DNA of 64,000 nt from an uncultured Gemmatimonadota bacterium (GCA_964490075.1 CAZBBK010000027.1:1-64000); one strand, 5' to 3'; shown: positions 8,797-30,735, counted from the first letter of the stretch. A program made the numbers and translations. Notes: generated by a model not told the origin, from the letters alone.

Positions 8797-10513
<1,717 letters not shown>

Positions 10514-10517
10514 GCCG

Positions 10518-11120
10518 ATGAAAGAGACGATTGTCGCGCTGCACGCCGATGGCGAAGGACCGGAGGACCGTTTGATCCTGGCACCGGCGGTGGGACGCTA
10601 CCTGCACGCGCCGCCGGTCGGCACGCACTTGACGCCGGGAGCGGCGGCGGGAGTGTTGCGGGTGCTGACCACGACCCGGCGCGTGGTGGTGCCGCGCGGT
10701 GGGGGCGGCTTGGTGCAAGAGGTGCTGGTGGAGGACCGGGCGACGGCGGTCGACTATGGGCAACCGTTGCTTTCGCTCACCTTGGCGGCAGGGGGTGTGG
10801 CGCTCGAAGGGGAACGCCAGGGAGAGGGCGGAGACACCGGCGACGACAGCATTCCCGAGGGGATGGTGGCGGTGCGGGCTCCGACCGACGGCATATTCTA
10901 CCGGCGCCCGGCGCCGGAGGAGCCGGCCTACGTGGAGGTCGGCGACGTGGTGCAGCGCGGCAAGGTGCTGGGCCTGGTCGAGGTGATGAAGTGCTTCAAC
11001 CAGGTCGGCTACGGCGCCGAGAACGACGTGCCGGACCAGGCGCGGGTGCGACGCATCGTGCCCGAGGACGCGGCCGAGGTGAAGGTGGGGCAGCCGCTTT
11101 TCCTGTTGGAGCCGGTCTGA
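10518..11120 (+). CDS. accB: Biotin carboxyl carrier protein with an extra degenerate N-terminal biotinyl-like domain
   Basis: APTDGIFYRRP..EVMKC biotin-Lys motif..GQPLF; N-terminal half APAVGRY..DYGQPL lacks MK. Confidence 0.85.
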   Translation: MKETIVALHADGEGPEDRLILAPAVGRYLHAPPVGTHLTPGAAAGVLRVLTTTRRVVVPRGGGGLVQEVLVEDRATAVDYGQPLLSLTLAAGGVALEGERQGEGGDTGDDSIPEGMVAVRAPTDGIFYRRPAPEEPAYVEVGDVVQRGKVLGLVEVMKCFNQVGYGAENDVPDQARVRRIVPEDAAEVKVGQPLFLLEPV

Positions 11121-11128
11121 CCCGATGA

Positions 11129-12418
11129 CTACAAGAAGCGCTCCATGAAGCGGTAGTCGGGGGTCAGCTCGCCGTGGTGGAGGATGGTGGCGCGCTTGAT
11201 CGGCGCCGGCAGGTCGAGGCTGTCGAAGGGGCGGCTCCAGTCGGCGGCGACAAGGGCGGGCAAGAAGGGTGAAAGCGCCGCGCTGAAGGTCTCGGAGCTC
11301 TCACGGGGGATCTCGCAGGGCAGGTTGTCGACCGCCATGATCACCGGACCGTCGCCGGCCACTCCATCGGTCGCGACGCCGGAACGCGGATCGTAGACGT
11401 AGCAGGGCTGGTCGCTCTCGGTGGCCTTCACGCTGCACTCGATCGCGCCCTCGATGTCGATGGAGATGTCGCCGATCACCTTCAGCCGGGCCAGGTCGCC
11501 GGCCGGCCAGGCGCGGCGCAGGTAGTCCTTGGTGACCAGGCGCGGGCAGCGGTCGTTCCAAAAAATGGCGTTGACCAGGATCGACAGATGCGGCAGGAAA
11601 CGCTCGAAGCAGGACCGGTAGAGCTCGGGGTGATCGAAGTAGTCCTGCAGCTCGAACTCGCCGCCGTCGGCGCGCTGGAACATGTGCTTCTCGTAAAACA
11701 CCACTTTGTGGATGCGGTCGGGGCGCAGCCGGCGGCGGCGCTCGGGATCGAGCAGAGAGGCCGGGTCGAGCTCTTCGGTGGGCAGGAGATCGAGGATCGA
11801 CTGTGCTCCCTGCGACACATTTCCGTAGCCGGTGAAGCCGACGATGACCGGTTCGGGACGGTCCTCGGCGCCGAGCGCTCCGAGTTCGGCGCGGGCGTGC
11901 TCCAGTGAACGATACTCATGGGCCGAGCGGATGGCGCTGAAGATGCTCTCGTGGCCTTCCCAGCGCAGGCGATCGCCGTAGGCCGTCAGCGTATCGATCA
12001 TTCCGGCGTAGCCAGCGTGACGCCCGAAAAAGACCAGGCGCCGCCCCTGGTCATCGGCGATGCACTCGTAGTCGACCAGGGTGACCTTGCGCTCGATCAT
12101 GCGGCGCAGCAAAGGCATGTTGTAGGACTGGCCCTTGATGGTGTGGGAGAAGAGCAGGTAGCGACGCCCTTCTTCGATCAGCTCGATCGGGATCTCCTTG
12201 ACGGCGAAGATCAGCTCGGCGCTCGACAGATCATCCTCGATACGCGCGCCGGCGGCGGCATAGGAGGCATCGTCGAAGATCCGCGTCGTGGAAGGCTGGA
12301 CGAGGACCTCGACGGCGTGCGCGTCGACGACCGAGCGCACGGCGTCGGGGCTCAGCGCTACGCGCCGCTCCCAGTGGTTCTTGTCTTCGCGGCGGATGCC
12401 GAGGCGGACCGGGGGCAT
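11129..12418 (-). CDS. Lysine-2-oxoglutarate reductase / saccharopine dehydrogenase (AlaDh/PNT fold)
   Basis: GIRREDKNHWERR, VKEIP, FSHTIKGQ, DYECI, FFGRHAGYAG, GYGNVSQGA, AVDNLPCE; AGGAG RBS. Confidence 0.9.
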   Translation of the reverse strand: MPPVRLGIRREDKNHWERRVALSPDAVRSVVDAHAVEVLVQPSTTRIFDDASYAAAGARIEDDLSSAELIFAVKEIPIELIEEGRRYLLFSHTIKGQSYNMPLLRRMIERKVTLVDYECIADDQGRRLVFFGRHAGYAGMIDTLTAYGDRLRWEGHESIFSAIRSAHEYRSLEHARAELGALGAEDRPEPVIVGFTGYGNVSQGAQSILDLLPTEELDPASLLDPERRRRLRPDRIHKVVFYEKHMFQRADGGEFELQDYFDHPELYRSCFERFLPHLSILVNAIFWNDRCPRLVTKDYLRRAWPAGDLARLKVIGDISIDIEGAIECSVKATESDQPCYVYDPRSGVATDGVAGDGPVIMAVDNLPCEIPRESSETFSAALSPFLPALVAADWSRPFDSLDLPAPIKRATILHHGELTPDYRFMERFL

Positions 12419-12732: not shown

Positions 12733-13797
12733 ATGTCCCCACGGTCCGAGAGCAGTCGAGGTCGGCACTTTGTCTTGGGCGCGCTGTGCTGTACGGCCCT
12801 CGCGCCCGGGCAGGCCGAGACAGACTCGCTCGTGGACGGAATGGAACGCGGTGGCGCACCGAGCTTCCATCTCGGCGAAGGGATCCAGTTTGGCGACTCC
12901 GGCCTGCACATCGGTGGCTTTACCACCGTCGAGCTGATCACCCAGGCCGGGGAGCCGACGGAAGTCGAGGTCGAGGGCTTGAACCTGCTCGTCCTCTATC
13001 AGCCTCACCAAGCCTTGCGGGCCTTCCTGGAGCTCGAAATCGGACCGCTGCTCGTCCTCGATTCCGAGAGCTGGGAGGTCACCACCGACATCTCTACCAC
13101 CGTCGATCGGCTCTTCGCCGATTGGGGCATCCTCGACGCCCTCAATCTGCGCCTCGGGAAGTTCCGCACTCCGATCGGCCGCTGGAACCTGGTTTCCGCC
13201 GAGCCTTTCGTCTGGACCGCGTCGGAACCGGTGCTCGTCGCCCGGGCCTTCGACGAGATGCAAAACGGATGCATGCTCTTCGGCACTCTCTACCCTGCAT
13301 CCAAGGTGCTGGGGTACACCGTTTACGGCCAGCTCTTCGATCCCCTGCAACCCGACAGCACCCCTCCCCCCGCCGATCGCGGCATCGGGGCGCGTGCGGA
13401 GATCGGCACCACCCTCGACGAATGGTCGCTGGCCGGCTCGGTGCTGGCGTCGAAGCGCGGTGCCGACCGGCATCTGCTGCTCGGGATCGATGGACGTTGG
13501 CGCGACGGGAAGACCGAGATCACGGGTGAACTGGCCTGGGCCAATGGCCAGATCGAAGAGCGAAGACTCTGGGGAGTCTATGTGCAAGGGGTGCGCGAGA
13601 TCGTGCCGCTGCTCAATGCTGTCGGTCGTTTCGAGCACTTTGCTCCTCGCGAGAGCACCCATTCGAACATCGTCGACTTCGGCTTCGCCTGGCAACCCAA
13701 ACCTTTCCTCCTCACCAAGATGAACTACCGCCTGGTGGATCACGCGGACGAGGAGGCGATGCGCGGACTCAATGGGTCGATCGCGCTGCTCTTTTGA
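12733..13797 (+). CDS. Outer-membrane porin-like beta-barrel protein
   Basis: Signal peptide, LRLGKFRTPIGRWN motif, alternating beta-strand pattern, C-terminal Phe. Confidence 0.75.
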   Translation: MSPRSESSRGRHFVLGALCCTALAPGQAETDSLVDGMERGGAPSFHLGEGIQFGDSGLHIGGFTTVELITQAGEPTEVEVEGLNLLVLYQPHQALRAFLELEIGPLLVLDSESWEVTTDISTTVDRLFADWGILDALNLRLGKFRTPIGRWNLVSAEPFVWTASEPVLVARAFDEMQNGCMLFGTLYPASKVLGYTVYGQLFDPLQPDSTPPPADRGIGARAEIGTTLDEWSLAGSVLASKRGADRHLLLGIDGRWRDGKTEITGELAWANGQIEERRLWGVYVQGVREIVPLLNAVGRFEHFAPRESTHSNIVDFGFAWQPKPFLLTKMNYRLVDHADEEAMRGLNGSIALLF

Positions 13798-16726: not shown

Positions 16727-18382
16727 ATGGGTCGCAACGCAGGAATGGCGCCCGAGATGCGCGAAATGGTGCTGGAGACGCTCGACGGCGTGCTCGAGCG
16801 CGACTATCCGGACGAGCTCCGACTCGAGCTCGACGCCGGCGAGCAGTTTCCCGAGGCGCTGATCCGCAAGATGGTGTCGCCGGAGTTGGGCCTGCACCTG
16901 GTCTTTCTTCCCGAGTCGGTCGGGGGACTGGGCGGGGGAGCGCGCGACATTTGCGCCTTCGCGGAGCGCATGGCCACGGCCGACGTGGGGCTGGCGACGG
17001 CTTTTCTCGGCATCTCGCTGGGCACCGACCCGATCCTGGTTGGAGGCACCCAGGCGCAGAGTGAGCGCTGGCTCTCGCGAGTCGCGGAAGAAGGCTCGAT
17101 CGTGGCCTACGCGGTCACCGAGCCGGAAGCGGGCAGCAATCTCTCGGCCATGCGCATGACCGCCGATCCGATCACCGATGCCTCCGGCGTGGTAACCGGC
17201 TACTCCCTGAACGGCACCAAGCAGTTCATCACCAACGGCGGCGTCGCCGACCTCTACACGGTGCTGGCGCGGGCGCCGGGAGGTCCGAGCTTTTTCGTCG
17301 TCGAGAGGAGCGCGACCGGGCTCGAGATCGGCAAAAAGGAAGACAAGCACGGGATCCGGGTGTCGGACACTACGGCGCTGGTGTTCGAGAACGTCGAGGT
17401 TCCGACCGACAATCTTCTGGGCGGCGTCGAGGGGCAGGGACTGGCGCAGGCCAACAAGGTATTCGGCTACACGCGGCTGATGGTCGGGGCGTTCGGGCTC
17501 GGCGGGGGACGCGGCGCCCTGGAGCGTGCCGTCAACTACGCCAAGGTGCGGGTGCAGTCGGGCTCGACGCTGATCGAAAAGCAGGGCTACACCTTCAAGC
17601 TCCTGGTTCCGAACTGGATCGACCTGGCCGCGGGCCGGGCCTATATCGACGAGATCGCGGTCCGGCTGGACGCCGGCGAAAAGGCGTTGCAGGTCGAGGG
17701 CTCGATCGCCAAGCTGTGGGCCACCGAGGCGGCCAATCGTGCCGCCGACGCGGCGGTGCAGGCGCTCGGCGGCTACGGCTACATGCGCGAGTACATGGTC
17801 GAGAAGTACCGCCGCGACTGTCGCATCCTGACGATCTACGAGGGCACCAGCGAGATCCAGCAGCACATCATCGCGCTCTACCGCTGGAAGGAGACGGTGC
17901 GCTCCAAGGGCTCGTTCTACGAGGAGCAGGCGGACGCTGTCGGCGCCCTGCACGAGTCCCATCCCGAGGTCGGTGCCGATCTGACGGCGGCGGCGCTGCG
18001 CGGGCTGAACCGAACGATTCAATACTGTCACCGGTCGAAGCTGACTCGCCACCAGACGGTGATGCTTACTCTGGCCGACGTGATGGCGCTGAGCGAGGTG
18101 GCGGCGGCGTTCTGCCGGCACGCCGCCGCGCAGGCCGAGGGCGATGGGACGGAGGCCGGAGTCCTGGCGGCCGCCAGCCGAGTGCTGGCCCGGCGCGCGC
18201 TCTCGCAGATGATCACGGCCGCGTCGACCTGCGCCACGGGGTTTCTGGACGGAGAGGACGAGGGCGCTTCGGCGGGGGTCGAGGAGTTGCTGTGCTCGGT
18301 CCGCGAGGGCCACGATCCGGCGCGGCTCGCCGGGGCGCTGCTCGACATGGGAGCGATCGCGGAGCTGCTGCGTTCGGACTGA
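16727..18382 (+). CDS. Acyl-CoA dehydrogenase with C-terminal helical extension
   Basis: AVTEPEAGS, LNGTKQFITNG, KEDKHGIR, GGYGYMREY, IYEGTSEIQ; GGAGG RBS. Confidence 0.95.
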   Translation: MGRNAGMAPEMREMVLETLDGVLERDYPDELRLELDAGEQFPEALIRKMVSPELGLHLVFLPESVGGLGGGARDICAFAERMATADVGLATAFLGISLGTDPILVGGTQAQSERWLSRVAEEGSIVAYAVTEPEAGSNLSAMRMTADPITDASGVVTGYSLNGTKQFITNGGVADLYTVLARAPGGPSFFVVERSATGLEIGKKEDKHGIRVSDTTALVFENVEVPTDNLLGGVEGQGLAQANKVFGYTRLMVGAFGLGGGRGALERAVNYAKVRVQSGSTLIEKQGYTFKLLVPNWIDLAAGRAYIDEIAVRLDAGEKALQVEGSIAKLWATEAANRAADAAVQALGGYGYMREYMVEKYRRDCRILTIYEGTSEIQQHIIALYRWKETVRSKGSFYEEQADAVGALHESHPEVGADLTAAALRGLNRTIQYCHRSKLTRHQTVMLTLADVMALSEVAAAFCRHAAAQAEGDGTEAGVLAAASRVLARRALSQMITAASTCATGFLDGEDEGASAGVEELLCSVREGHDPARLAGALLDMGAIAELLRSD

Positions 18383-18394
18383 CTCGGGGACCCC

Positions 18395-20119
18395 ATGGCG
18401 CACTACGATCTCGACTGTCTCTTCGTCCACGTTCCCAAGGCCGACAACCACTATCTGCCTCTCGGCGACTTCTTCAACATCACCTACATGCCGATGGGCC
18501 TGCCGGCGCTGGCGCGGTGTATCGAGGACCACGGCCGGCGGGTGGAGATCTGCCACCTGGGGGTCGAGTGGCTGGCCGATCCGCGCAGCAACGTGGTCGA
18601 CATCTACCAGGGGCGACGCATCCGCGCCATCGGTCTGCCACTCTACTGGCACTACCAGGCATACGACACCATCCAGGTCGCGCAGGCCCTGGCCCGGGCC
18701 CACCCGGAGGCCTTCATCTTCCTCGGCGGGCTCAGCGCCGGTTATTTCGCCGCCGAGATCGTCGGCCGCTACCGCTTCGTCGACGCGCTGGTGCGCGGAC
18801 ACGGCGAGGGGCCGGTCGTGGATCTGGTCGAGGCACTTTGCGAGGGTGGTGATATCGGAGAGGTGGAGCACCTGGTGCTGCGCGATCCGGCGAGCGGCCG
18901 AGCGGTCGAGCCCGGGTCGAAGGGACGAGCTCCGGTGCCGCTGGACGAGCTGGTGTTCGCCGACCTGAGCACTCTGCGGCATGCCGAAATCTACGCCAAG
19001 AGCTTCGGCTTTCCGCTGGCCTATTCGCGCGAGCTCACGCCCGCCGAAAACCGCGCCATGCTCAGCATGGGCCGTCCCTTCTTCCCGCTCTTCGTCGGTC
19101 GCGGCTGTCCCTGGTCGTGCACCTTCTGCGGTGGCAACCGCGGCACTCTGGCGAGAGTGAACGGAACCGCGAAAGCAACCTGGCGCTCCCAGGATCGGGT
19201 GGTCGACGACATCGTTCGGGCGCGGGAGCTCGGCTACCGGACCATGGCGCTCTGCTTCGATCCGACTCCGACCCGCGACGACTACTACGTCGAGCTGTTC
19301 CGAAAGGTGCGCCGGGCACGGATCGACGTCGACCTCTACTTCGAGTGCTGGGGGTTGCCGACCGAGCGCTTCATGAACGAGTTCCGGCGCGCCTTCCCAT
19401 CGCCGGAGTCGTACGTGGCGCTTTCGCCCGACGCCGGCGACGAAGAGGTGCGAAAACGCAACAAGCAACCGTATTACAGCGACGCCGAGCTGTTCCGAGC
19501 TCTGGAGACACTCGACGCTTCCGAAGTGTCGGCGGATGTCTTCTTCACCATCGCGCTGCCGGGAGAGCGGCTGCCGCAGGCGAGACGGACCGCCGCGTTG
19601 AAGCATCGCATCGCTACGTCGTTCCGGCATGCACGGCGGGTCATGACCTGGACGGTGCAGCTCGAGCCGGGCTCGGCCCAGTTCGAGCGCCCGGCCGAGC
19701 TGGGCATGGTGACCGACCGGACCTGCTTCGACGACTTCTACCAGGCCCACGGCGGGCGCCGCGCCGACACTTACTCGTCGCTCGGATTCAAGATACTAGA
19801 TTATTTCGGTGACGAACGTGACCAGGGCGACATCGCCGACTTCGAGCGACATATTCAGCACCTGAAGTGCATGGAGCTCTGCTTCCTGGCCAAGGATCCG
19901 CGCCAGTGGAATGCCCCCGAGGCCGGGCGCCTTCACTGTCTGGAGCGGCGGGTCGATCTGGCGCGGCGTCGCGGGCACGACGCTCCGGTGCTGGAGATCG
20001 GCCGAGACGTCGACTACGAGTCGGCCTTGGCGGAGGAATCGAAGCTGCGCGGGACCCGGCCACGACAGCGCTGGGTCGCGGAACAGGATGTCTCGCGGGA
20101 GGGGGAAAGAAGGGCATGA
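18395..20119 (+). CDS. Cobalamin-binding-domain radical SAM enzyme
   Basis: GRGCPWSCTFC (CxxxCxxC); N-terminal PMGL..LGG..A..RGHGE B12-binding-type domain. Confidence 0.9.
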   Translation: MAHYDLDCLFVHVPKADNHYLPLGDFFNITYMPMGLPALARCIEDHGRRVEICHLGVEWLADPRSNVVDIYQGRRIRAIGLPLYWHYQAYDTIQVAQALARAHPEAFIFLGGLSAGYFAAEIVGRYRFVDALVRGHGEGPVVDLVEALCEGGDIGEVEHLVLRDPASGRAVEPGSKGRAPVPLDELVFADLSTLRHAEIYAKSFGFPLAYSRELTPAENRAMLSMGRPFFPLFVGRGCPWSCTFCGGNRGTLARVNGTAKATWRSQDRVVDDIVRARELGYRTMALCFDPTPTRDDYYVELFRKVRRARIDVDLYFECWGLPTERFMNEFRRAFPSPESYVALSPDAGDEEVRKRNKQPYYSDAELFRALETLDASEVSADVFFTIALPGERLPQARRTAALKHRIATSFRHARRVMTWTVQLEPGSAQFERPAELGMVTDRTCFDDFYQAHGGRRADTYSSLGFKILDYFGDERDQGDIADFERHIQHLKCMELCFLAKDPRQWNAPEAGRLHCLERRVDLARRRGHDAPVLEIGRDVDYESALAEESKLRGTRPRQRWVAEQDVSREGERRA

Positions 20120-21261
20120 AAGAGCGACTCTTCGTGGTCGACTGCACGCTGCGCGAGGGCGATCAGACTCCCGGTGTGGCGATGCGGCCCGATGCCAAGC
20201 TGCGCATCGCACATCTGCTCGACCGCGCCGGTGTGTCATTGGCCGATGCCGGCATGCCGGAGATCGGTTCCGAGGAGCGCGCCTTCCTGCGCGACGCGTC
20301 CCGTGGCTGCTCCTCGATGGTGGTGGGAGGATCGGTGCGCTGTCTGCCGCGCTCGGTCGAGCTGGCGCTCGGCTGCGAGCTGCGCGCGGTGTTCGTGATC
20401 TGTCCGATCAGTCGGCGCCACCTGGAGGGGCGCATAGGAGCCTCGCTCGATCGCCTGCTGGGCGACCTGGAGCGTTGCGCCGAGCTGGTCTCCGGCGCCG
20501 GCGCCAGTCTCGAGGTGGTGGCCGAGGACGCCACCCGCGCCGATCCCGACCAGCTCCGTGCGCTGGCCTCGGCGGCCGCCGACCTGGGTGCGGCGCGTGT
20601 CTACCTGGCCGACACGGTCGGCTGTCGCACTCCGGGGCAGATCGCGACGCTGGTGACGGATCTGAGCGAAGTGGTCACGGTGCCGCTGGGCATCCACTGT
20701 CACGACGATTTCGGGCTCGGGACGGCCAACACGCTGGCGGCGATCGAGGCCGGGGTGCGCTGGCCCACCGCCACCGTGAACGGCATCGGCGAGCGGGCCG
20801 GCAACGCGTCTCTGGAGGCGGTGGTGTGCGCGGCCGAGCGTCTGCTGGAGATCGACAGCGGAGTCGATCCGACGCTGCTGCCGGAGCTCTCCCGGGTCGT
20901 GGCGTCGGCCAGCGGCATGCCGGTCGCGTGGCAAGCGCCGATCGTCGGTCGCAACGCTTTTCGCCACGAGTCCGGAATCCACGTCGACGGAGTGCTGAAG
21001 GACCCAACGAGCTACGAGGCCTATCCGCCGGAGTGGGTGGGGCGCGGGCGCAGCTTGGTGCTCGGCAGACACAGCGGCCGCGCCCACCTGCGCGCGCTGC
21101 TCGCCGAAATGGGCTACGAGCCCGACGCGGTTCACGTGGAGGCGGTGCTGAGCGCGCTGCGCACCGAGGCGCTGGAGCGTGCCGCACGGGCGCCCGGCGA
21201 GGGGGTCTCGCTCGACCGGCTGCGGGAGATCGTGCGCGCCTGCGGCGAGGAGTGCGCGTGA
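20116..21261 (+). CDS. Homocitrate/isopropylmalate synthase-like DRE-TIM metallolyase, no regulatory domain
   Basis: DCTLREGDQ, HCHDDFG, GIGERAGN, HESGIH, LGRHSG; ATGA overlap with the rSAM gene. Confidence 0.9.
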   Translation: MKERLFVVDCTLREGDQTPGVAMRPDAKLRIAHLLDRAGVSLADAGMPEIGSEERAFLRDASRGCSSMVVGGSVRCLPRSVELALGCELRAVFVICPISRRHLEGRIGASLDRLLGDLERCAELVSGAGASLEVVAEDATRADPDQLRALASAAADLGAARVYLADTVGCRTPGQIATLVTDLSEVVTVPLGIHCHDDFGLGTANTLAAIEAGVRWPTATVNGIGERAGNASLEAVVCAAERLLEIDSGVDPTLLPELSRVVASASGMPVAWQAPIVGRNAFRHESGIHVDGVLKDPTSYEAYPPEWVGRGRSLVLGRHSGRAHLRALLAEMGYEPDAVHVEAVLSALRTEALERAARAPGEGVSLDRLREIVRACGEECA

Positions 21262-22529
21262 GCAGGGGGCGCACGCTGACCCGGCGCATTCTTGAGTCGC
21301 GCGCCACCGGCGAGGGCATCGCCGGCAGCGACTATTTCGAGGTCGAGCCCGACCTGGTGCTGGGCCACGACGCAACCATCGCCCTGATCGTCGACCGCAT
21401 CGCCGCGGCGGGAGGGCGGCTGCCAAATCCGGAGAAGCTCTTTCTGGTGGCCGATCATTTCGCCCCGCCCTCCACCGTCGACCGGGCCAACATCCTGCGC
21501 AAGTTCCTCGACTTCGCCGAGCAGACCGACTCCGGCGAGCTGCATCTTTTTCAGGGGATCTGTCACCAGCTCCTGGTCGAGAGCAAACGTTGCGTTCCGG
21601 GCACCCTGATCGTCGGCGCGGACTCCCACACCACCATGGCCGGCGCGCTGGGCGCCTTCGCCTGCGGCATGGGATCGACCGACATTTTGGCGGTGCTGCT
21701 CACCGGCCGCACCTGGCTGCGGGTGCCGGCGGCGCTGCGGGTGGTCTTCGGCGGCCGGATGCCGGCACATCTGCGCGGCAAAGACCTGGCATTGCGGTTG
21801 CTGGCGCTGCTCGGCGAGGGCGGTGCGGGCTACCGCTCGCTGGAGTTCGAGGACCGCAGCGAGGGGCATGGAATTCCGATGGACGGACGCCTCACTCTCT
21901 CGAACATGGCGGTCGAATGCGGGGCCAAGAACGGCATCTGGATCCCCGACCGGTGCACCCGCGACAGTTTCGAGGCGCTCGGGGGGATCTGGCCGGAGGG
22001 TATCGAGCTGCGCCCCGATGCCGATGCCGACTACGAGCGCGAGATCGAGGTCGGTCTCGGCGACCTGGAGCCGCAGATCGCCCGCCCCTGGTCTCCGGCC
22101 AACGTGACGCCGGTCGCGGGGGCGGCCGGCACCAAGGTGCACCAGGTCTTCATAGGCTCCTGCGCGGGCGGGCGGCTCGAGGAGCTCGAGGATGCCGCGA
22201 CAGTGCTGCGCGGGCGGCGCATCCCTCGGCTGCTGAAGGTCGTGATCACACCGGCCTCGGTCGCCGTCTACCGCGAGGCGCTGCGCCGCGGCTGGATCGG
22301 CGACCTGATCGACGCCGGAGCGGTGCTGACCAATCCCTCGTGCGGCGCGTGCGGCGGCATCGACAAAGGACTGGTCGCAGCCGGCGAGGTATGTGTGTCG
22401 ACCTCCAACCGCAACTTCCGCGGGCGGATGGGCGATGTCGATGCCGAGGTCTATCTCGCCAGCGGTTTGAGCGCCGCCGCCGCCGCTCTGACCGGGCGCA
22501 TCACCGATCCGCGCGAGGTGCTGCGATGA
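21258..22529 (+). CDS. leuC: 3-isopropylmalate dehydratase/homoaconitase family large subunit
   Basis: DH, GICHQ, GADSHT, IGSC, CGACGG, STSNRNFRGRMG; GTGA overlap. Symbol denotes family only. Confidence 0.9.
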   Translation: MSRGRTLTRRILESRATGEGIAGSDYFEVEPDLVLGHDATIALIVDRIAAAGGRLPNPEKLFLVADHFAPPSTVDRANILRKFLDFAEQTDSGELHLFQGICHQLLVESKRCVPGTLIVGADSHTTMAGALGAFACGMGSTDILAVLLTGRTWLRVPAALRVVFGGRMPAHLRGKDLALRLLALLGEGGAGYRSLEFEDRSEGHGIPMDGRLTLSNMAVECGAKNGIWIPDRCTRDSFEALGGIWPEGIELRPDADADYEREIEVGLGDLEPQIARPWSPANVTPVAGAAGTKVHQVFIGSCAGGRLEELEDAATVLRGRRIPRLLKVVITPASVAVYREALRRGWIGDLIDAGAVLTNPSCGACGGIDKGLVAAGEVCVSTSNRNFRGRMGDVDAEVYLASGLSAAAAALTGRITDPREVLR

Positions 22530-23035
22530 GGGGGGTGACGCGCGCCGAAGCGTTGGTATTCGGCGACGACGTCAACACCGATCTGTTGCACCCTTCGTAC
22601 TTCTACTCGCTGGATGGCGAAGTGGTGCGTTCGGGTTTCCTGCGGGCGGTGCCGGGGCGCGAGAGCGGGCCCGAGGAAGCGGCCACGCCACGGATCCTGG
22701 TGGCGGGGCGCAACTTCGGCTGCGGATCGTCGCGCGAGACGACGATTCAGGCGCTGAAGATGGGGGGCGTGGACGCGGTGGTGGCGGCCTCGTTCGGGCG
22801 CATCTTCTATCGCAACGCGTTGTCGTCGGGGCTGCCGGCGCTGTGCTGCGAACGCGCCGCGGAGAAGACGGAGAGCGGCGACCTGCTCACCCTCGATCTC
22901 GACCAACTGGTGGTGCGCAACGAGACCCGTTCGACCGAGACGGCCCTGGAGCCGCCCGACCCCTTCTGGCGCCAGGTGCTGGCTGCCGGCGGATTGATCC
23001 CCTTCCTGCGGGAGCGCGGAGAGCTCGAGGGATGA
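22526..23035 (+). CDS. leuD: 3-isopropylmalate dehydratase/homoaconitase family small subunit
   Basis: DDVNTD, GRNFGCGSSRE, SFGRIFYRN, GGLI; ATGA overlap. Symbol denotes family only. Confidence 0.9.
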   Translation: MRGVTRAEALVFGDDVNTDLLHPSYFYSLDGEVVRSGFLRAVPGRESGPEEAATPRILVAGRNFGCGSSRETTIQALKMGGVDAVVAASFGRIFYRNALSSGLPALCCERAAEKTESGDLLTLDLDQLVVRNETRSTETALEPPDPFWRQVLAAGGLIPFLRERGELEG

Positions 23036-24312
23036 AGCGCTACAGTCCGCTCCCGGCCGCGGCGGCGGCACCCTACGACGTCGACGTGGCGGTCGTCGGC
23101 GGCGGTCCGGCCGGAATGAGCGCGGCGATTCGCGTGCGTTGGACCAAGAGCTACCGCTCGGTGCCCTGCTCGGTGGCGGTGTTCGAGAGCGGGCGCCTGG
23201 GCGGTCTGGCGACCTGGCGCTCCTGCGCCCTGACCGGTCCCGGGTTCAAGTTCCGGGGCGACGGGTTGCTGCATCACCTGCTCGGGGATTTCGAGCGCTT
23301 CCATATTCCGGTGGTGAGGGAAGGGGCGGTGGCGCTGCGGCCGGGGTCGGACCATTTTGTCGTCAGCGGCGATGCAGGGACGGAGATCCGCGCCCTGAGC
23401 GTAATTGTCGCGACAGGGTTTCGCGCGCTCGCCAACGAGGCGGAGTTCATCGGGCGCGGTGTCTTCATCACCTACCTGGGCTACGAGCACTTCTCCGAGA
23501 TCTTCGAATCCGCGACCGCTGCCGCCGCCGGCCGCGGCCTGGTCATCGCCGGCAACGCCAAGTCGCGCCACCTGGCGGAGCTGGCGCGGAGTCGCGAAGA
23601 GCGTGCCGGCGGCATCACCTGGCTGATCGACGAAGGGGCCGGGGCGGCGCCCGAGCTGCCGGGAAGACAGCTTCGGGGGCGGGTCGTGAGGCTGCTCGGA
23701 GAGCGAGAAGATGAGGGCGAGTCGATCCTGCGCCGTCTGCGCATCCAGAACCCGGAGGGGGAGCGCTCGACCATCGATTGCGGCGCCCTGCTGCTCGATT
23801 ACAACGCCTTCGAGCTGGCGCCCTCGTTCGGTTGCGACCGGCTGGACCTGCGGCGCGACGAACGCGGCTTCGTCGCCGTCGATCGCCACTGCGCCACCAG
23901 TGTGCCGGGCGTCTTCGCCGCCGGCGACATCACGGGCCACTACGCCTCGACCGCCATGGCGCTGGGCGACGGCGTCAACGCCGGCTTTGGCGCCTACCGG
24001 TATGTGTTCCGCCGCAAATTCGGCCGCGAGCCGGAGCTCTTCGCCTATGCCCCGAGCGATCGGCCGATCGTGGAGGGCGAGCGCGACCTGCCGCCGATCA
24101 CCCCGGACATGATTCCGATCGCTTTGGCGCCTCCGGCGCAGGCCCACGAACGATCGGCGGTCCCCGAGGAGCTCGTCGCGTCTTTCGACGGGGCTCGATC
24201 GATCGACGAAGTCTGCCGGAGGGCGGGGATCGACGTTTCGCAAGGGTGTCGCTGGGTCGAGGGACTGATCGAGCGGAAGCTGGGGACGGTGCACAGGGTG
24301 GGTGGTGATTGA
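23032..24312 (+). CDS. Thioredoxin-reductase-fold FAD oxidoreductase lacking CxxC, with C-terminal winged-helix-like tail
   Basis: VVGGGPAG, IVATG, TSVPGVFAAGD; ATGA overlap; tail SFDGARSIDEV..LIERKL. Confidence 0.85.
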   Translation: MKRYSPLPAAAAAPYDVDVAVVGGGPAGMSAAIRVRWTKSYRSVPCSVAVFESGRLGGLATWRSCALTGPGFKFRGDGLLHHLLGDFERFHIPVVREGAVALRPGSDHFVVSGDAGTEIRALSVIVATGFRALANEAEFIGRGVFITYLGYEHFSEIFESATAAAAGRGLVIAGNAKSRHLAELARSREERAGGITWLIDEGAGAAPELPGRQLRGRVVRLLGEREDEGESILRRLRIQNPEGERSTIDCGALLLDYNAFELAPSFGCDRLDLRRDERGFVAVDRHCATSVPGVFAAGDITGHYASTAMALGDGVNAGFGAYRYVFRRKFGREPELFAYAPSDRPIVEGERDLPPITPDMIPIALAPPAQAHERSAVPEELVASFDGARSIDEVCRRAGIDVSQGCRWVEGLIERKLGTVHRVGGD

Positions 24313-24316
24313 GGGC

Positions 24317-25981
24317 TCAGGGCTCGGGCCCCCGCGCCACTGGCTGCCCCGGCGACCAGGCCACCAGCATCTCGATCTCCTCGATGTCCGACCCCTGGCT
24401 GACGCGCAAGAGATAGCGACCCGGCGCCAGCGTGGGCGGAACCGCCACCGTGACCTCGTCGTGCCAGGAGCCTCGGGGCGGGAAGTGGATCGGCCGGCGC
24501 CACTCGGCAACCGGCTCGCCAGCTGAATCGACGAGAACGATCAGCAGCTCGGGATCACGCGGCTGGTCAGCGAGATTCGCCACCAGCACTCGAAACACCG
24601 CCTCGCCTCCGGCGATCGCCCGCGTCGAATGTGGCACGACGTAGAGCAGATCGAAATCGCTCTGATCGAAAGGGATGGGACCGATATCGCGGCGCGTGCC
24701 GTCGGCGTCGAGCGAATCGATGCCGGCCGGGGGATCGGGATCGCCCGCGTCGATGCAGGGGGAGCCGGGTCGGAGACGATAATCGCCGAGATCGGGAGCG
24801 AAGAAGAGGGGATCGCCGCGAACCTCGAGCTGGACGTCGAAGGGGGCACCACCATAATCGCCATCGGGGTTCGCGTGGACCAGGTTGGCCACGATCGACT
24901 GGTTCGGGTAGAGCTGCACGATCGCCGGGCCGCCGCTGTTGTTGGTGAAGATGTTGGAGCCGACATAGCTGCCGGGACCCTGGATGTCGAGTGCGGAGCC
25001 CGACTTGTAGCCGTCGTTGGCCCACTCCACGGTGTTGCCGATGAAGAGGTTGTGGGTGACGATGGCGTCGTCCTGGAACTCGACCTGGAGCCCGCCGCCG
25101 GCACCGGAGAGGCCGGCTGAGTACATGGCGCGTGCGTGGTTTTCGATGAAGAGGTTGTCTTGGACCAGGTTTGGCTCCCGAATATCCGGCGTTACCGTCC
25201 CGCCTCCTTCCTTCGCTTCGTTGCCCTCGAAGACATTGCCGATCAGATCGAACTCTTGGCTCCTCGGTCCCCCCATGCTCAGGCCACCGCCCTTGGTGGC
25301 ACCGTGCTCCTCCTGGATACCGTTTTGCAGGAACACGCTTCCTTCTATGATCCCTGTGTCGCTGGCGTACGCGTTGGCGCCCGCACCGTACCAGTCGGCC
25401 CGGGTCAGTGTGTTGTTGGCGAACCAACTCCGACGCAACTCCAGGAATGCATATGCCGTGAGAATTGCGCCGCCACCGCTGAGATCCCCCTCGTTGCTCC
25501 AGCTCGAGTAGCCATTTACTCGCAAAGTGTCGCCACCTAGCTGGAGTGCGGTGCTCAAGCCGTCGTTCGCACTGTCGAAGTCATGGACCCAGCAGTCCGT
25601 GATCTCTACTTGGCTTCCATCCGCGCAGACCAATACCTGCACGCCCCTCGCCATCGGATCGGCTCGGGCTGCCTCCCCGGAGAAATCGATCCCTTCAAGC
25701 CGAACTCGCTGGCCACAGGCGTGAATGTGGAATAACCACGTTTCCGGATCGCTCCCGCGCCAGCGCGTCGCCGCCGGTCCCCCCTGACCGACGATACTCA
25801 GACCGCGCTCCGCCACGACATGCTCGCGGTATTCCCACGGAAGCAGTAAAACGGTATCGCCTTCGGCCGCCTGATCGACCGCATCCTGGATCTTCTCGAG
25901 CGGCTGTCCCGGACCCACCACCAGGGTGGCGGCGTGCGCCGACGCCGCCACCCAGAGTACCAGGCACGCGGCCGCGATCAC
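24317..25981 (-). CDS. Beta-helix secreted protein with C-terminal Ig-like domain
   Basis: Signal peptide, IQDAVD head, FxxN/GGG repeats, SPCIDAGDP..DIG, then PPTLAPGRY; GTGA overlap with upstream ORF. Confidence 0.85.
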   Translation of the reverse strand: MIAAACLVLWVAASAHAATLVVGPGQPLEKIQDAVDQAAEGDTVLLLPWEYREHVVAERGLSIVGQGGPAATRWRGSDPETWLFHIHACGQRVRLEGIDFSGEAARADPMARGVQVLVCADGSQVEITDCWVHDFDSANDGLSTALQLGGDTLRVNGYSSWSNEGDLSGGGAILTAYAFLELRRSWFANNTLTRADWYGAGANAYASDTGIIEGSVFLQNGIQEEHGATKGGGLSMGGPRSQEFDLIGNVFEGNEAKEGGGTVTPDIREPNLVQDNLFIENHARAMYSAGLSGAGGGLQVEFQDDAIVTHNLFIGNTVEWANDGYKSGSALDIQGPGSYVGSNIFTNNSGGPAIVQLYPNQSIVANLVHANPDGDYGGAPFDVQLEVRGDPLFFAPDLGDYRLRPGSPCIDAGDPDPPAGIDSLDADGTRRDIGPIPFDQSDFDLLYVVPHSTRAIAGGEAVFRVLVANLADQPRDPELLIVLVDSAGEPVAEWRRPIHFPPRGSWHDEVTVAVPPTLAPGRYLLRVSQGSDIEEIEMLVAWSPGQPVARGPEP

Positions 25982-26942
25982 TGCGGTGCGCCCTGGTTCA
26001 GGACCATCGTTCCGGAGGCCGCCGCATCGGGCCAGAAGGTCTCGCCGGTGATCGCGGTTTGTACGTCGGCGTTGGTCTGGCTCATCTCCAGCAGGAGCTT
26101 CTCGTAGGGCTTCAGGTAGGGGCGAACGGCGTTATGAAACTTGGTGTCGACCAATCCCCAGGTTTGGGAGAAGTTGGCATTCTCCGGGCCACCTGCTTCT
26201 AGGTTGGAGTCGAACGAGATATCCCAAAACCGATACCAGTTGTACCCAGTGACGATCCGATGCTTGTTCGGCTCGTTGCCATATGCCTTGGTGTTCATCA
26301 CCACGTTCACGTACCTGCGGAACTTGTCCGCGCGAGGCTGGAAGTGCCCCTCTTCGGGATAGTGCCATTGCTCCTGTTGGGTACAGATCCCAAGCAGGCC
26401 GATGCAGTCCGAGACGCCCGAATCCCAGCAACAGTCCCACGCCCGTTTGTTGTCCGCGTGATAGGTGAATTCGCTCATGATGATCGGGCGTGGATAGGCG
26501 AACGCGTTGTAGGCATTCTCGAGTTTGCCTGGAATGTCGTCCGGTGACGGCGAATAGTAGGTGATCGATATCACGTCGACGTATTCGGAGGCGATGCTGG
26601 GGATCTGCGGATATAGCACGTCGGCCGCGCTGAGAAACCGGTCGCTGATGATCATGTGAGCGTTCATGGATTTGCCGTCGAGCAAAACGACTCGGTCCTC
26701 AGAGATGATCTTGTCCCTGAAATCCGACATACGTCAGAAGCATGCGCGAAGTCGTTCATCTGGATCTTGTCGATCGCGGTGGGAGCGAAAGGCCTCCCCG
26801 CGGGGTCGTACCAGAGCCAGTCCTTGGTGGCCACGTCCTGCTCGACGAAGTAGAACCCCGTCGGCGTGCCCGGGTAGTCGGGGTAGCCGGCTGCGCCCGC
26901 TTTAGCGTACAGAGTCAGAGAGAGAGAATCATCCCTCGGCAA
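25978..26942 (-). pseudogene. Internally deleted GH50 (beta-agarase)-like glycoside hydrolase remnant
   Basis: Fragment 1 TGFYFVEQ..WLWYDPAGRPF resembles the GH50 TGFF..WWLVDPEG motif. Fragment 2 has DVIS, IIMSEF, GYNWY..D..EN..GLVD..PY. Different frames, middle missing. Confidence 0.6.
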
Positions 26943-27104
26943 GAATCTTGCTTGCTCAGGGCAATTGTTCCTCGATTGTGCGTGTTTGCCGTGCCTCGGT
27001 CGGCAATGTTCCGGACCGTTTCGGCACTGTCAACCGTTCTTTGGGCAAGGCGCGACCTCTCCTGCTTTACCCTGCCCCCCCTACCCGCTACCACCCCACC
27101 ACGC

Positions 27105-27110
27105 TACAGT
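27105..27110 (+). promoter_or_regulatory. -10 box TACAGT 6 nt before ATG (leaderless)
   Basis: TACAGT-CCCCCG-ATG; no SD. Confidence 0.5.
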
Positions 27111-27116
27111 CCCCCG

Positions 27117-27527
27117 ATGGACCCCTTGCTGCGAAGCGACCTGAGAGAGCTGATGGCCGAGCATCAGATCGGCGTGCTCGCGCTCTTCGGCTCGCGCGCC
27201 ACCGATTCGGCCGGTGCTCGGAGCGATGTCGATCTCGCGGCGCTGCGCGCTGATCGGCGGCGGATGTCTCACCGGCAGCTCGCAGATCTGCGTCTCGCCC
27301 TCGCCGACCGCAGCCGGGCCCCGGTCGATCTGGTCGATCTGGCGAGCGCCGACACCTTGCTGCGCTTCGATATCGTCTCCCATGGCCGTCTGCTGGGCTC
27401 TACCGATCGGTCGCTGTGGATCGAGTTCGTCGCCCGCACCCTGATCGATCACGACGAGATCGCCCCCTTCATCGACGATCTCGTCGCCGGCGTGGGTCGC
27501 GTGGCACGCAAGCGAGCCGCCCCATGA
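27117..27527 (+). CDS. mntA: Minimal nucleotidyltransferase antitoxin (MntA-like, type VII TA)
   Basis: LFGSRA..SDVDLA (GSx10DxD), VDLVDL; 136 aa. Confidence 0.85.
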   Translation: MDPLLRSDLRELMAEHQIGVLALFGSRATDSAGARSDVDLAALRADRRRMSHRQLADLRLALADRSRAPVDLVDLASADTLLRFDIVSHGRLLGSTDRSLWIEFVARTLIDHDEIAPFIDDLVAGVGRVARKRAAP

Positions 27528-27940
27528 GTCCCGCCGTCATCGCCCGCAAAATCGCCGAAATCGGCAAGCGGGTCGATCGGGTGCGCGCGCTGCTTCCAAC
27601 CTCGGCGCGGGTCTTTCGGCGCCAACAGACCGAGGCCGAGGCACTGATCCTTAATCTCTATCTGGCGCTGCAGGGCGCGGCCGATCTGGCGATGCACGTG
27701 GTCGCGACCCGTGGCCTGGGCGTTCCAGGAGAAGCAAGGGACGCCTACCAGCTCCTGGGAGATGCGGGGATTATCGACGCCCCCTTGGCCGAGCGCCTCG
27801 CGGCCTCGGTGGGCCTGCGCAACCGCATCGCGCACGAGTACGGCAAGCTCGATCTCGATCTCGTCTACCAGGCGGCGCTCGACGACTTGCACGACCTGGA
27901 GATTCTGAACGCGGCCGTAGCGACGGCCTTCGATCTCTGA
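27524..27940 (+). CDS. hepT: HEPN RNase toxin (DUF86/HepT-like)
   Basis: RNRIAHEY (Rx4HxY); ATGA overlap with MNT. Confidence 0.9.
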   Translation: MSPAVIARKIAEIGKRVDRVRALLPTSARVFRRQQTEAEALILNLYLALQGAADLAMHVVATRGLGVPGEARDAYQLLGDAGIIDAPLAERLAASVGLRNRIAHEYGKLDLDLVYQAALDDLHDLEILNAAVATAFDL

Positions 27941-27978
27941 GCGAGCACCACGATTCGCCACCCAATACACGCTTGGTC

Positions 27979-29066
<1,088 letters not shown>

Positions 29067-29070
<4 letters not shown>

Positions 29071-30494
29071 CGCGCGGCTGGTGGCTGCCGGCCGAGCTTC
29101 GGAACCTGGTGGACGATGTGGTGCCGCGGCGCTACCGCACACCGGAGCACGGCGACTTCGAGGTCGAGATGCCGCGCCTGACGCCGGTCGCGGTGGCCGA
29201 GGTCGCGGCTCGGTTACGGATGCGCGCGGAGCGCGTGCTGCGACGACGCCCGGTCAAGGAGATCGTGGAGCTGCTCGACCGCGCGGCCGCGCAGTGGCTC
29301 GACCCGGACTCCCCGCGCCGCGCCGCCGCCCTCGACGCGATCCCGAGAATCACCGGCTACTCGCGGCCGATGGTGGCCCACGCCATCGACCTGGAGCAGC
29401 GCTCGTCGCGCGCCGAGCACCTGCGGGCCTGCCTGCGCTCGGAGATCGGCGATCCGGCGCTGCTCGACGAATTCCACGCGTCGCCGCAACTGGCGCCGGG
29501 GGGGATGTGCCGCGCTCTCGGGCCGGGGTTGGTCGGCGGCGTGTTCAGCGCCAACATTCCCGCCCTGCCGCACCTGACGGTGATGCGTGCGCTCTTGGTC
29601 AAGGCGGCCTGCCTGGGACGGTCCTCGGCCGGAGAGCCGGCCTTCCTGCCGCTCTACCTCGAGGGATTGGCGGAGCTCGACGAGGAGCTGGCGTCGGCCC
29701 TCGGGGTGCTCTGGTGGGAGCGCGATGACGCGCGTCATTGGACCGCCTTCCTGGAGAGGATCGAGTTCCTGGTGGCCTACGGCGGGGCCGACGCGGAACG
29801 CGATCTTCGGGACCGGGCGCCGGCCGGACTGCCGCTCCTCTATCACGGCCACCGGCTGGGACTGTCGATCGTGGAGGCTCCCCGCGACGCCGCGGCGCGC
29901 CGCGATCTGGCAGCGCGCCTGGCCTACGACGCGACGGTCTTCGACCAGCACGCTTGCCTGTCGCCGCAGCTGGTGCTGGCGCTGGGCGACTTCGAGCGCG
30001 CGGCCGAGCTGGGCGGCGACGTGGCGCGCGAGATGGAGCGACTGCGGGGCAAGCTGCCGCCGCGGATCCTGGAGCCGGCCGCGGCGGCGAGATTGGCGCA
30101 GCTCCGCGGCGTGGCGGAGATCGCCGAGGCGCTGGGGGAAGCGGTGCGTCTGATCGTTCCGGAGGACGGCGGCGGCGCCTGGACGGTGCTGGTCGAGGCC
30201 GCCGAGGGCCTGCCGCCCTCGCCCCTCGACCGCTTCCTGCGCATCGTTCCCGAGGCTTCGGCCGACGCCGCGCTGGACCGCCTGCGGCCCTACCGCGGGC
30301 TGCTGCAGAACATCGCGGTGGAGGTCGCCTCCGACCAGGTCACGGTCCTGCAGGAGGCCTTGGCCCAGCTCGGCGCCAGCCGCATCTGCCCGCCCGGACA
30401 GATGGCGACGCCTTCGATGATGTGGCACCACGACGGCCAGGGGTGCGTGGGGACGATGGTGCGCTGGTGCGACTTCGAGGTGCAAAAACCATAG
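29067..30494 (+). CDS. LuxC-like acyl-CoA reductase
   Basis: FSANIP, AYGG, DQHACLSPQ catalytic Cys, RICPPGQM, WHHDG; ATGA overlap. Confidence 0.85.
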
Positions 30495-30735
30495 GCGCAC
30501 CCCCTTCCCGCCCGTCAATCTCCCCGCTATCCTCACCAAGCCCAAATCGGGGCAGATAATCGGCACGAATGGGATTCTCGTGTAATCCGACCGAGCGAAG
30601 GCGCATGCGGAGACGAGGCGGCGCCAAGCCCGCCGACGATAGGATGATGCGCGCTTCGCGACCGGAGTTAGGGGATCCCGCTCGCGCCGCCCACCCAAGC
30701 GCGCCGCTGGTGCGCAACGTGAAGGGACTCTAGAG

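Follow-up and report, generated by a model that had tools for sequence, protein, structure and literature searches.

A conserved seven-gene module joining a DRE-TIM synthase and LeuCD to a cobalamin radical SAM enzyme, a flavoprotein and LuxE-LuxC in uncultured bacteria

The DNA considered in this study is a stretch of 64,000 nucleotides (nt) from an uncultured Gemmatimonadota bacterium (GCA_964490075.1, CAZBBK010000027.1:1-64000), which I will call the window. It contains an operon that raises a simple question: what is made by a set of genes whose beginning resembles the chain elongation of leucine or lysine synthesis, minus the defining dehydrogenase, and whose end is a carboxylate reductase of the luciferase type? 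Seven well-understood enzyme families, in three gene orders and in distant phyla, are brought together here, and yet no described pathway fits them. The conserved unit consists of genes for a B12-binding radical S-adenosylmethionine (SAM) enzyme, a DRE-TIM synthase, LeuC-like and LeuD-like subunits, a flavoprotein, and relatives of LuxE and LuxC. I will refer to it as the module. It is a real and conserved pathway module composed of known enzyme families, and the listings and abstract beginnings of the literature searched contain no description of the gene set.

The unit and its conservation

Six genes on the plus strand occupy positions 16727-24312 of the window. The first encodes an acyl-CoA dehydrogenase (ACAD; 16727-18382; 551 amino acids (aa), FadE-like with a C-terminal extension; Pfam Acyl-CoA_dh_N, _M and _1) and is followed after 12 nt by the first core gene, that of the radical SAM enzyme (18395-20119; 574 aa; B12-binding PF02310 and Radical_SAM PF04055). 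From there to 24312 the genes are joined by four overlaps of 4 nt, as found from the listing of open reading frames (ORFs) and inspection of the junctions. An ATGA (20116-20119) links the radical SAM gene to that of the synthase (20116-21261; 381 aa; PF00682 and PF22617), a short Claisen-condensing enzyme resembling homocitrate synthase (HCS), isopropylmalate synthase (IPMS) and citramalate synthase (CMS). A GTGA (21258-21261) leads into the gene of the LeuC-like large subunit of an Fe-S dehydratase/isomerase (21258-22529; 423 aa; Aconitase PF00330), and two further ATGA overlaps connect this to the LeuD-like small subunit (22526-23035; 169 aa; Aconitase_C PF00694; overlap 22526-22529) and the latter to a flavoprotein with the fold of thioredoxin reductase (TrxR) and ferredoxin-NADP reductase (FNR) (23032-24312; 426 aa; Pyr_redox_2 PF07992; overlap 23032-23035). 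The sixth and seventh core genes lie farther downstream on the same strand and share an ATGA overlap of their own: a LuxE-type acyl-protein synthetase, adenylating (27973-29070 from a TTG start, or from an ATG start at 27979; PF04443, 50.2 bits), and a LuxC-type acyl reductase, aldehyde-forming (29067-30494; PF05893, 236.9 bits).

The original prediction, made from the sequence of the window, had described six co-oriented genes, the last five joined by overlaps. The ORFs and junctions bear this out, as Pfam and NCBIfam do its domain calls. The boundaries it drew need to be moved at both ends: it counted the ACAD as part of the unit, and it stopped at 24312, short of LuxE and LuxC.

To place the boundaries, the radical SAM protein was searched for in one genome per GTDB species, and the proteins of the window were then compared with the loci recovered. 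All seven genes are contiguous, in the same order as the core set, in each of the seven genome loci with enough flanking sequence (records labelled by NCBI as Gemmatimonadota, Hydrogenedentota, 'Deltaproteobacteria' and 'uncultured bacterium'), and when the most distant locus (L017) is taken as reference, only these seven genes are common. Metagenome contigs were scanned using 56 aligned radical SAM orthologues, which yielded 80 further loci. In 35 of them a radical SAM gene of the module clade adjoins one or more of the other module genes; 12 of the 80 hold all seven genes, and the rest of the 35 end at contig edges. The complete set is thereby known from 19 loci besides the window, LuxE being collinear in all complete modules. 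Homologues of the ACAD adjoin the module only in L011 and L012, both close relatives of the window's lineage, and it is not part of the module but an accessory of that lineage alone; it reaches no NCBIfam equivalog cut-off (best 230.9 bits against 640).

The seven genes occur in three orders, with the radical SAM gene first (as in the window), between LeuD and the flavoprotein, or last. In a tree of radical SAM sequences (FastTree, with Shimodaira-Hasegawa-like (SH-like) support), all module-linked copies fall into one clade of 42 rows (support 96), and each gene order forms its own clade within it (supports 99, 100 and 100). The set has therefore been kept together through rearrangements. The module is compact, about 10 kb without accessory genes, and an all-against-all comparison of ORFs from 27 module loci found no further gene family common across lineages and no transporter, regulator or tailoring gene that recurs with it. 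In loci of two of the orders (called B and C), a second B12-radical SAM gene adjoins that of the synthase.

The distribution of the module is patchy across three GTDB phyla. The radical SAM gene is present in three of the five species genomes of the window's phylum, in all six of the phylum of L018, and in one of 135 in that of L017. The names attached to protein matches add Myxococcota, Alphaproteobacteria and Hyphomicrobiaceae as carriers, and a tblastn search of a plasmid collection with the radical SAM protein gave no match. The closest relatives are labelled Gemmatimonadota by NCBI, yet the GTDB phylum of the window's genome comprises only the five species genomes just mentioned; similarly, the lineage of L018, labelled Deltaproteobacteria, makes up a GTDB phylum of six genomes. 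In L018 itself the radical SAM gene (10001-11678; G009:C8) is in two or three frame-shifted pieces and the other six genes look intact, which represents either a decaying copy or an error of long-read assembly.

In the window the operon is interrupted. A 3.7-kb stretch (24317-27970) lies between the genes of the flavoprotein and LuxE, which are adjacent in the relative L011, and its GC content is 0.62-0.65, as compared to 0.70 in the flanking bins of the operon. According to Pfam its minus strand encodes a secreted beta-helix protein (24317-25981), and its plus strand a Pol-beta nucleotidyltransferase resembling MntA (26742-27527) and a HepT-like RNase (27416-27940); a 250-aa ORF with no Pfam family (25978-26730) is also on the minus strand. 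I conclude that 24317-27970 is an insertion, that it interrupts the operon in this genome and that it carries a HepT/MntA-like toxin-antitoxin pair. Sequence of the window occurs in four DNA runs of one marine study, with no RNA run among those listed, and the genome may stem from one of the four. In all four, contigs bridge the left junction of the insertion. The contigs of those runs contain no clean insertion-free joint; the joints listed have sides of 20-31 letters at 90% likeness and were treated as noise from other organisms. The toxin-antitoxin pair ends 32-38 nt upstream of luxE, in the same orientation, and a HepT-like gene directly after luxC is found also in the unrelated order-B locus L076 (15582-16001).

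Enzymes of the module

A DRE-TIM synthase directly followed by a two-subunit enzyme of the aconitase family, translationally coupled, is familiar from the LeuA/LeuCD/LeuB and CimA/LeuCD/LeuB modules. AksA/AksDE/AksF in methanogens and HphA/HphCD/HphB in cyanobacteria are further modules of 2-oxo-acid chain elongation. The loci considered here differ from all of these in that the adjacent beta-decarboxylating dehydrogenase is missing, in that neither the synthase nor LeuCD attains an equivalog cut-off, and in that a radical SAM enzyme, a flavoprotein and LuxE-LuxC are obligate partners. There is no match to Iso_dh (PF00180, the family of LeuB) on the contig of the window, the two that the genome does have being on contigs C2 and C63, and a tblastn search with those two proteins (E <= 1e-3) found no gene similar to LeuB or to homoisocitrate dehydrogenase in 46 module loci (594,102 nt). 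Since the module loci have no such dehydrogenase, the chain-elongation cycle cannot close there in the known way; one encoded elsewhere is conceivable.

The genome has other enzymes of the leucine type. On C2 a second HMGL-like synthase stands beside a LeuB scoring above its cut-off (PRK03437, 426.7 bits against 393), and three fused LeuCD-type enzymes are encoded on other contigs, one of them a homoaconitase that passes TIGR00139 (707 against 530). Each of five other module-bearing genomes has 4-8 HMGL-like matches, and two of the five, G008 and G009, possess canonical LeuA (715 and 765 bits, cut-off 532) and canonical CimA (701 and 776 bits, cut-off 450). The module is independent of leucine and isoleucine metabolism and is not housekeeping. 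The genes on C2 and C63 give no obvious route to leucine and lysine in this organism: only two HMGL-like synthases were found in the genome, the one on C2 (L001, L004) scores at most 193 bits on every LeuA or HCS model, and C63 (L002, L005) carries a fused fungal-type homoaconitase (TIGR00139, 707 bits) with a gene similar to homoisocitrate dehydrogenase.

The synthase, judged by its sequence, is a Claisen-condensing DRE-TIM enzyme of the IPMS/HCS/CMS kind. It scores 210.2 bits on PF00682, its motifs LREGDQ, VAED and HCHDD align with those of solved HCS and LeuA structures, and R13 and E14 of the metal/substrate motif, E137 and the HxH are all retained. The best relative of solved structure is the HCS of Sulfolobus (6ktq, E 2.2e-53), and the LeuA of Neisseria (3rmj) is another. 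Pfam finds only HMGL-like and HCS_D2 in the protein; the regulatory domain LeuA_dimer is missing. Among the NCBIfam models nifV (TIGR02660) scores highest, at 335 bits against a cut-off of 462.9; TIGR02146 gives 249.6 against 413.55, the best LeuA model 260 against 532 and TIGR00977 (CimA) 153 against 450. The other module synthases tested behave in the same way, all of them scoring 330-347 bits on the nifV model (cut-off 463). By these scores and by the residues expected to bind a distal carboxylate, the enzyme appears to lie outside the homocitrate synthases (NifV, LysS and the Thermus enzyme, TtHCS); by its scores, the missing regulatory domain and its place in the tree, it appears to lie outside LeuA and CimA as well.

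In that tree, the 22 sequences with known linkage to the module all fall within a single clade of 64 rows (SH-like support 90), from which the LeuA and CimA sequences of module-bearing genomes are separate. Linkage was taken from the loci or from radical SAM and synthase matches whose contigs have identical lengths; the sister clade of the module synthases, of 22 rows, has no known linkage. The original prediction drew attention to a variant REGDQ motif and to the lack of a regulatory domain. Both are present, but the motif is limited to one sub-clade of module synthases and does not define them: among 127 relatives the position holds D in 28 and E in 97. The same prediction named the findings that would count against it, namely that the synthase and LeuCD be the genome's only leucine or lysine enzymes, that they cluster with canonical orthologues, and that their linkage to the radical SAM enzyme and flavoprotein not be conserved elsewhere. 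None of these was found: separate enzymes of the leucine type exist on C2 and other contigs, the synthases form a clade of their own, the linkage is strongly kept outside this genome in three orders, and the absence of LeuB claimed for the window holds for the 46 module loci too. One member of the synthase clade (P0116, gene BZZ01_03730, 56% identical to the window's synthase) comes from the complete genome of Nostocales cyanobacterium HT-58-2. The hits of the searches with the radical SAM enzyme and the flavoprotein include none from this strain. It possibly represents a cultured organism that carries a reduced version of the cluster, or a different one.

The residues that would determine the substrate can be compared with those of TtHCS (3a9i). 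His72, Arg133 and Ser135 of that enzyme, which I take to bind the distal carboxylate of 2-oxoglutarate, have Ser73, Glu133 and Val135 as their counterparts in the window's synthase, and the 127 relatives have Ser at the first of these columns in 116 cases, Asn, Glu or Asp at the second in 112, and Val at the third in 115. The LeuD-like subunit offers a second indication. Its substrate loop, TD(L/I/Q)L(H/Q)P(S/P)x(F/Y)(F/Y)SL, is aromatic (YFYSL or FFSL), and it lacks Arg, presumably a marker of homoaconitases, in six of seven module orthologues, that of L017 having one at a variable position. Taken together, the synthase columns and the LeuD loop point to a small or hydrophobic 2-oxo acid, and the substrate is likely a neutral (non-dicarboxylic) one.

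The LeuC-like and LeuD-like proteins are, on the strength of their sequences, an Fe-S dehydratase of the LeuCD/homoaconitase type, archaeal-type subfamily. LeuC scores 444.8 bits on the subfamily model NF001614 (cut-off 385), and LeuD 126.4 bits on TIGR02087 (cut-off 108.95). The equivalog models are not reached, neither for LeuC (TIGR02083, 352.5 against 610.65; NF040615, 347.8 against 550) nor for LeuD (TIGR02084, 106.3 against 245.85; NF040604, 99.4 against 230), and the pair would accordingly not be LeuC and LeuD, or HacA and HacB, in the strict sense. The LeuC motifs GSCAGGR and NPSCGACGG, which contain the three Cys ligands of the 4Fe-4S cluster, are kept in seven orthologues, and so are GADSHT and STSNRN.

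The radical SAM enzyme is predicted to bind cobalamin and to be of class B, having both a B12-binding domain (PF02310, 37.2 bits, cut-off 32.1) and the radical SAM core (PF04055, 49.9 bits). The three cysteines of its CxxxCxxC (C238, C242 and C245) are invariant in the 56 orthologues, and so are three others in the C-terminal region (C492, C496 and C515). Its best NCBIfam model is TIGR04190, the Ta0216-type family of B12-radical SAM proteins, which it matches over residues 31-453 at 162.6 bits, below the cut-off of 500. It is thus not a member of that family, from which it differs in the additional C-terminal region with the three invariant Cys; the family is itself uncharacterised, no literature having matched TIGR04190 or Ta0216. 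The N-terminus also matches the model of the hopanoid methylase HpnR. About 104 of the 112 clusters listed (at 90% identity) match the enzyme at E <= 1e-97 with 34-100% identity, and a search of the ESM Atlas returned generic clusters of B12-radical SAM proteins only.

The flavoprotein scores 76.2 bits on TIGR01292, far from its cut-off of 343.45, and is better described by its predicted structure. The AlphaFold2 model (mean predicted local distance difference test score, pLDDT, 93.8) has the two-domain TrxR/FNR fold followed by a helical C-terminal domain of about 65 aa, and the top matches by Foldseek are YcgT (5xhu), thioredoxin reductases (among them 3f8p) and the FNRs of Bacillus (6gas) and Chlorobaculum (3ab1), with E about 1e-20 to this FAD/NAD(P)-type fold. 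It is not a thioredoxin reductase, since 50 members of the family have no conserved Cys and no CxxC; in this it is like the FNR branch, which lacks CxxC too. Its identity to the TrxR and FNR enzymes is 18-25%, and it differs from them also in the extra helical domain and in a degenerate second dinucleotide motif, in which only one glycine (G174) is conserved at 90% or more. The family is small (69 representatives; 80 clusters at E <= 1e-30), similar in size to that of the radical SAM enzyme. Several of the flavoprotein matches have a longest contig of the same length as that of radical SAM or synthase matches. The score of a predicted complex of the flavoprotein and the radical SAM enzyme (0.00, controls not run) counts neither for nor against their binding.

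The last two proteins appear from their sequences to be a carboxylate (fatty-acid) reductase of the LuxC/LuxE type. Among solved structures, the only relatives are the LuxE (E 4.3e-14) and the LuxC (E 1.5e-15) of 7xc6, from Photobacterium. The Cys of LuxC's DQHAC, which I assume to be the site of acylation (motif DQxAC), is kept and aligns with that of 7xc6. As in luminous bacteria, an adenylating LuxE stands beside a LuxC acylated on Cys, but the two pairs are only distantly related (E about 1e-14 to 1e-15), and the module probably acts on something other than a plain fatty acid. The comparison of 27 loci shows no recurrent LuxD or LuxAB family, no search with their own models having been made.

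Outside the module clade, the radical SAM tree contains a sister clade of 34 rows, about 38% identical, whose members are paired with proteins of the peptidase U32 family (U32 matches in 23 loci). These loci (L089-L113, L115 and L119; for example L105, 6960-20880) represent another orphan cluster, and most of them hold a Liv-type ABC importer, a histidine kinase with a sigma-54 regulator, a second B12-radical SAM protein and a CCG-domain protein. In two of them, L091 (3-10340) and L093 (2188-14043), LuxC (preceded by LuxE in L093) is followed by a short-chain dehydrogenase/reductase (SDR), U32, the radical SAM enzyme and then an MMPL exporter, and an LpxL-like acyltransferase lies close by. 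A flavoprotein similar to amine oxidases and CrtI is additionally present in L091, and a further B12-radical SAM gene in L093; L094 and L097 have only U32, the radical SAM enzyme and MMPL. The variant of L091 and L093 looks lipid-directed.

A putative route and its rivals

What the seven enzymes might do together can be read from the chemistry of their families, which is where the substrate, the order of the steps, the methylation by the radical SAM enzyme, the role of the flavoprotein and the product proposed below all come from. The observed part covers which genes and domains are present, that catalytic residues are kept, and that the seven genes are conserved together and independent of leucine and isoleucine metabolism; what goes beyond the seven genes acting together I infer. 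The reading that I prefer, with a probability of roughly one half, is that the module condenses acetyl-CoA with a neutral 2-oxo acid, isomerises or dehydrates the product, modifies it radically (probably by methylation) and reduces a carboxyl to an aldehyde. The synthase would join acetyl-CoA to the 2-oxo acid, most plausibly pyruvate or a short aliphatic one, giving a 2-alkylmalate, which the Fe-S enzyme would dehydrate to an alkylmaleate and/or isomerise to a 3-alkylmalate. Instead of the oxidative decarboxylation of a LeuB-type enzyme, the cobalamin radical SAM enzyme would then act on an unactivated carbon. Enzymes of this class most often carry out C-methylation, which would be the default here. 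The flavoprotein may supply electrons to the radical step or reduce a C=C bond, and finally one carboxyl would be adenylated by LuxE and reduced by LuxC at the expense of NAD(P)H. The product would be the resulting aldehyde, or else a butenolide or lactol derived from it, unless the compound is handed on to housekeeping enzymes. The idea put forward in the original prediction, of a specialised pathway that condenses, isomerises, modifies radically and reduces, thus retains its core. The source of its reducing step has to be corrected: LuxE-LuxC, outside its coordinates, would supply the reduction, and the flavoprotein, which has the TrxR/FNR fold without a redox-active disulfide, is only a possible reductase. 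Its author did not recognise the combination as described, and neither do the listings and abstract beginnings searched here.

A further parallel is found in natural products. The early steps toward phosphinothricin and FR-900098 employ an HCS-like enzyme (Pms or FrbC), an aconitase-like enzyme (Pmi or FrbA) and, as P-methyltransferase, the B12-radical SAM enzyme PhpK; they act on phosphonate substrates, with PEP mutase and a step resembling isocitrate dehydrogenase. An HCS-like enzyme, an isomerase of the aconitase family and a cobalamin radical SAM methylase thus occur together there as they would in the module. The window's radical SAM enzyme differs in having no match to the PhpK family (TIGR04479 is absent from its hits), and no further family recurs with the module.

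Several points weigh against the proposed route. The substrate is deduced from a small number of aligned positions, with roles taken over from other enzymes, and one module synthase (that of L016) does have Arg at the position of Arg133. One order-C locus (L079) has a non-homologous ORF of 565 aa, without Pfam family, in the place of the synthase. The radical SAM enzyme belongs to no characterised family and has no sequence relative among solved structures (the best match, at E 0.054, is an unrelated peptide), and methylation is attributed to it as the class default only. Its sister clade, with U32 proteins and, in a few loci, LuxE-LuxC, MMPL and an LpxL-like protein, hints at a lipid substrate in place of a small acid. 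An aldehyde as end product would be unusual with no dedicated enzyme to consume it, and for the flavoprotein more than one role is conceivable. Finally, the carriers of the radical SAM gene that were seen are all metagenome-assembled genomes, and nearly all carriers of the module are uncultured.

The hint of a lipid leads to the likeliest rival, in which LuxE-LuxC reduce a fatty acid, the B12-radical SAM enzyme methylates or cross-links an acyl or isoprenoid chain, and the synthase and LeuCD contribute no more than a polar head piece or, as a starter, a branched 2-oxo acid. The outcome would be a membrane lipid or a fatty aldehyde or alcohol. This would account for 7xc6, a fatty-acid reductase complex, being the only match of LuxC and LuxE with a solved structure, for the composition of L091 and L093 (LuxC, with LuxE in L093, SDR, U32, radical SAM, MMPL exporter and LpxL-like acyltransferase), and for the best model of the radical SAM enzyme being TIGR04190 with an N-terminus that also matches HpnR. 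It is likewise in keeping with the FadE-like ACAD 12 nt upstream in the window's lineage and with the flippase-like protein, GT2 glycosyltransferase and two B12-radical SAM genes 2-7 kb upstream in the lineage of L013-L018. However, none of these lipid genes recurs with the module across lineages, and the ACAD is absent beyond one lineage; the module has no exporter, acyltransferase, acyl carrier protein or thioesterase (LuxD; not searched with its own model) of its own, and lipid tailoring leaves unexplained why the synthase, LeuCD and flavoprotein are invariant partners. I regard this explanation as possible but doubtful. It is quite improbable that the module is instead catabolic, salvaging an imported branched organic acid. 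The sigma-54 two-component regulators that adjoin order-C modules and sister-clade loci, the Liv-type importer of the sister clade, and the patchy, accessory distribution would suit such a role, but no transporter or regulator recurs with the module itself, a carboxylate reduction that costs ATP and NADPH is anabolic, and HCS/IPMS-type condensation is driven by thioester hydrolysis. In every characterised member of that family the condensation is, as far as is known, biosynthetic.

The remaining explanations tie the module to known end products. Pyruvate and acetyl-CoA might be converted through citramalate, 3-methylmalate, 3,3-dimethylmalate (by the radical SAM enzyme) and aldopantoate (by LuxE/LuxC) to pantoate, a B12-dependent route that would be the reverse of the known sequence of pantoate catabolism. 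Its appeal is one of chemical logic only, each step mapping to one enzyme of the module, and the pockets of the synthase and LeuD fit a small neutral substrate. Nevertheless, canonical PanB and PanC genes are side by side in ten out of ten module-bearing genomes examined, that of the window included, so that there is no gap for such a route to fill, and the module has no reductase to turn the aldehyde into an alcohol; I give the idea very little credence. I give scarcely any to ordinary amino-acid biosynthesis, that is, enzymes of leucine, isoleucine or alpha-aminoadipate lysine synthesis that happen to lie beside unrelated genes. One might be led to it by the presence of only two HMGL-like synthases in a genome 95% complete and by the fungal-type homoaconitase and homoisocitrate-dehydrogenase-like gene on C63, which have no obvious homocitrate synthase partner. 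Against it stand the linkage to the radical SAM enzyme, flavoprotein and LuxE-LuxC, kept in three orders and several phyla; the equivalog cut-offs that are not reached and the Arg and His for binding 2-oxoglutarate that are missing; the separate clade of the synthases; the LeuB that lies elsewhere beside another synthase; and the 4-8 HMGL-like matches in five of five host genomes scanned, with canonical LeuA and CimA present as well in G008 and G009.

Within the preferred reading of condensation, radical modification and reduction, the most far-reaching version is that of a widely transferred new route, in which the cobalamin radical SAM enzyme methylates an alkylmalate or alkylmaleate and LuxE-LuxC then make the semialdehyde. 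I consider it unlikely in this specific form. If it were true, the added methyl group could give rise to a branched carbon that is quaternary or difficult to make in other ways, and at least five bacterial phyla would have in common a new small metabolite: perhaps a branched hydroxy-aldehyde acid, or a methyl-butenolide or lactol, serving as a signal, a piece of a cofactor or a compatible solute. It would be the first C-methylation of a free metabolite by a class B radical SAM enzyme in carbon metabolism of the central type. The set is compact and its presumed precursors are central ones, which makes both the product and a new radical SAM reaction directly testable by synthesis and expression. 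To solve the module would be to assign a function to the TIGR04190-like radical SAM clade, to the family of TrxR/FNR-like flavoproteins and to LuxCE pairs that are not luminous, and to improve the annotation of many marine and wastewater metagenome-assembled genomes in which these genes are now named leuA, leuCD and trxB.

Other genes in the window and at related loci

Some ORFs near the module or its relatives have no Pfam family: in the window those at 12733-13797, 25978-26730 (within the insertion) and 30643-31131, in L017 that at 8468-9889, in L093 that at 4724-5197, and in L079 those at 1-1698, 9180-10595 and 11080-11871. The window contains two further radical SAM genes (36918-38363, plus strand, and 45936-47756, minus strand), one of which has a B12-binding domain. 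They reach no NCBIfam cut-off, the best models being HpnJ and BchE at 101-129 bits, and no equivalog cut-off is reached by the other B12-radical SAM proteins of the window and L014. At 8750-11120 of the window, the gene of a carboxyltransferase (mmdA-like, 252 bits, below cut-off) is followed by that of a biotin-carrier protein; this pair, upstream of the operon, is not conserved with the module. In L013-L016 and L018, a region about 2-8 kb upstream of the module is conserved within the lineage and encodes a flippase-like protein (LPG_synthase_TM), a GT2 glycosyltransferase and two B12-radical SAM enzymes. One of these two, in the lineage L013-L018, is HpnJ-like (259 bits, below cut-off), and beyond them lie genes for fructose-1,6-bisphosphatase and a PilZ protein.

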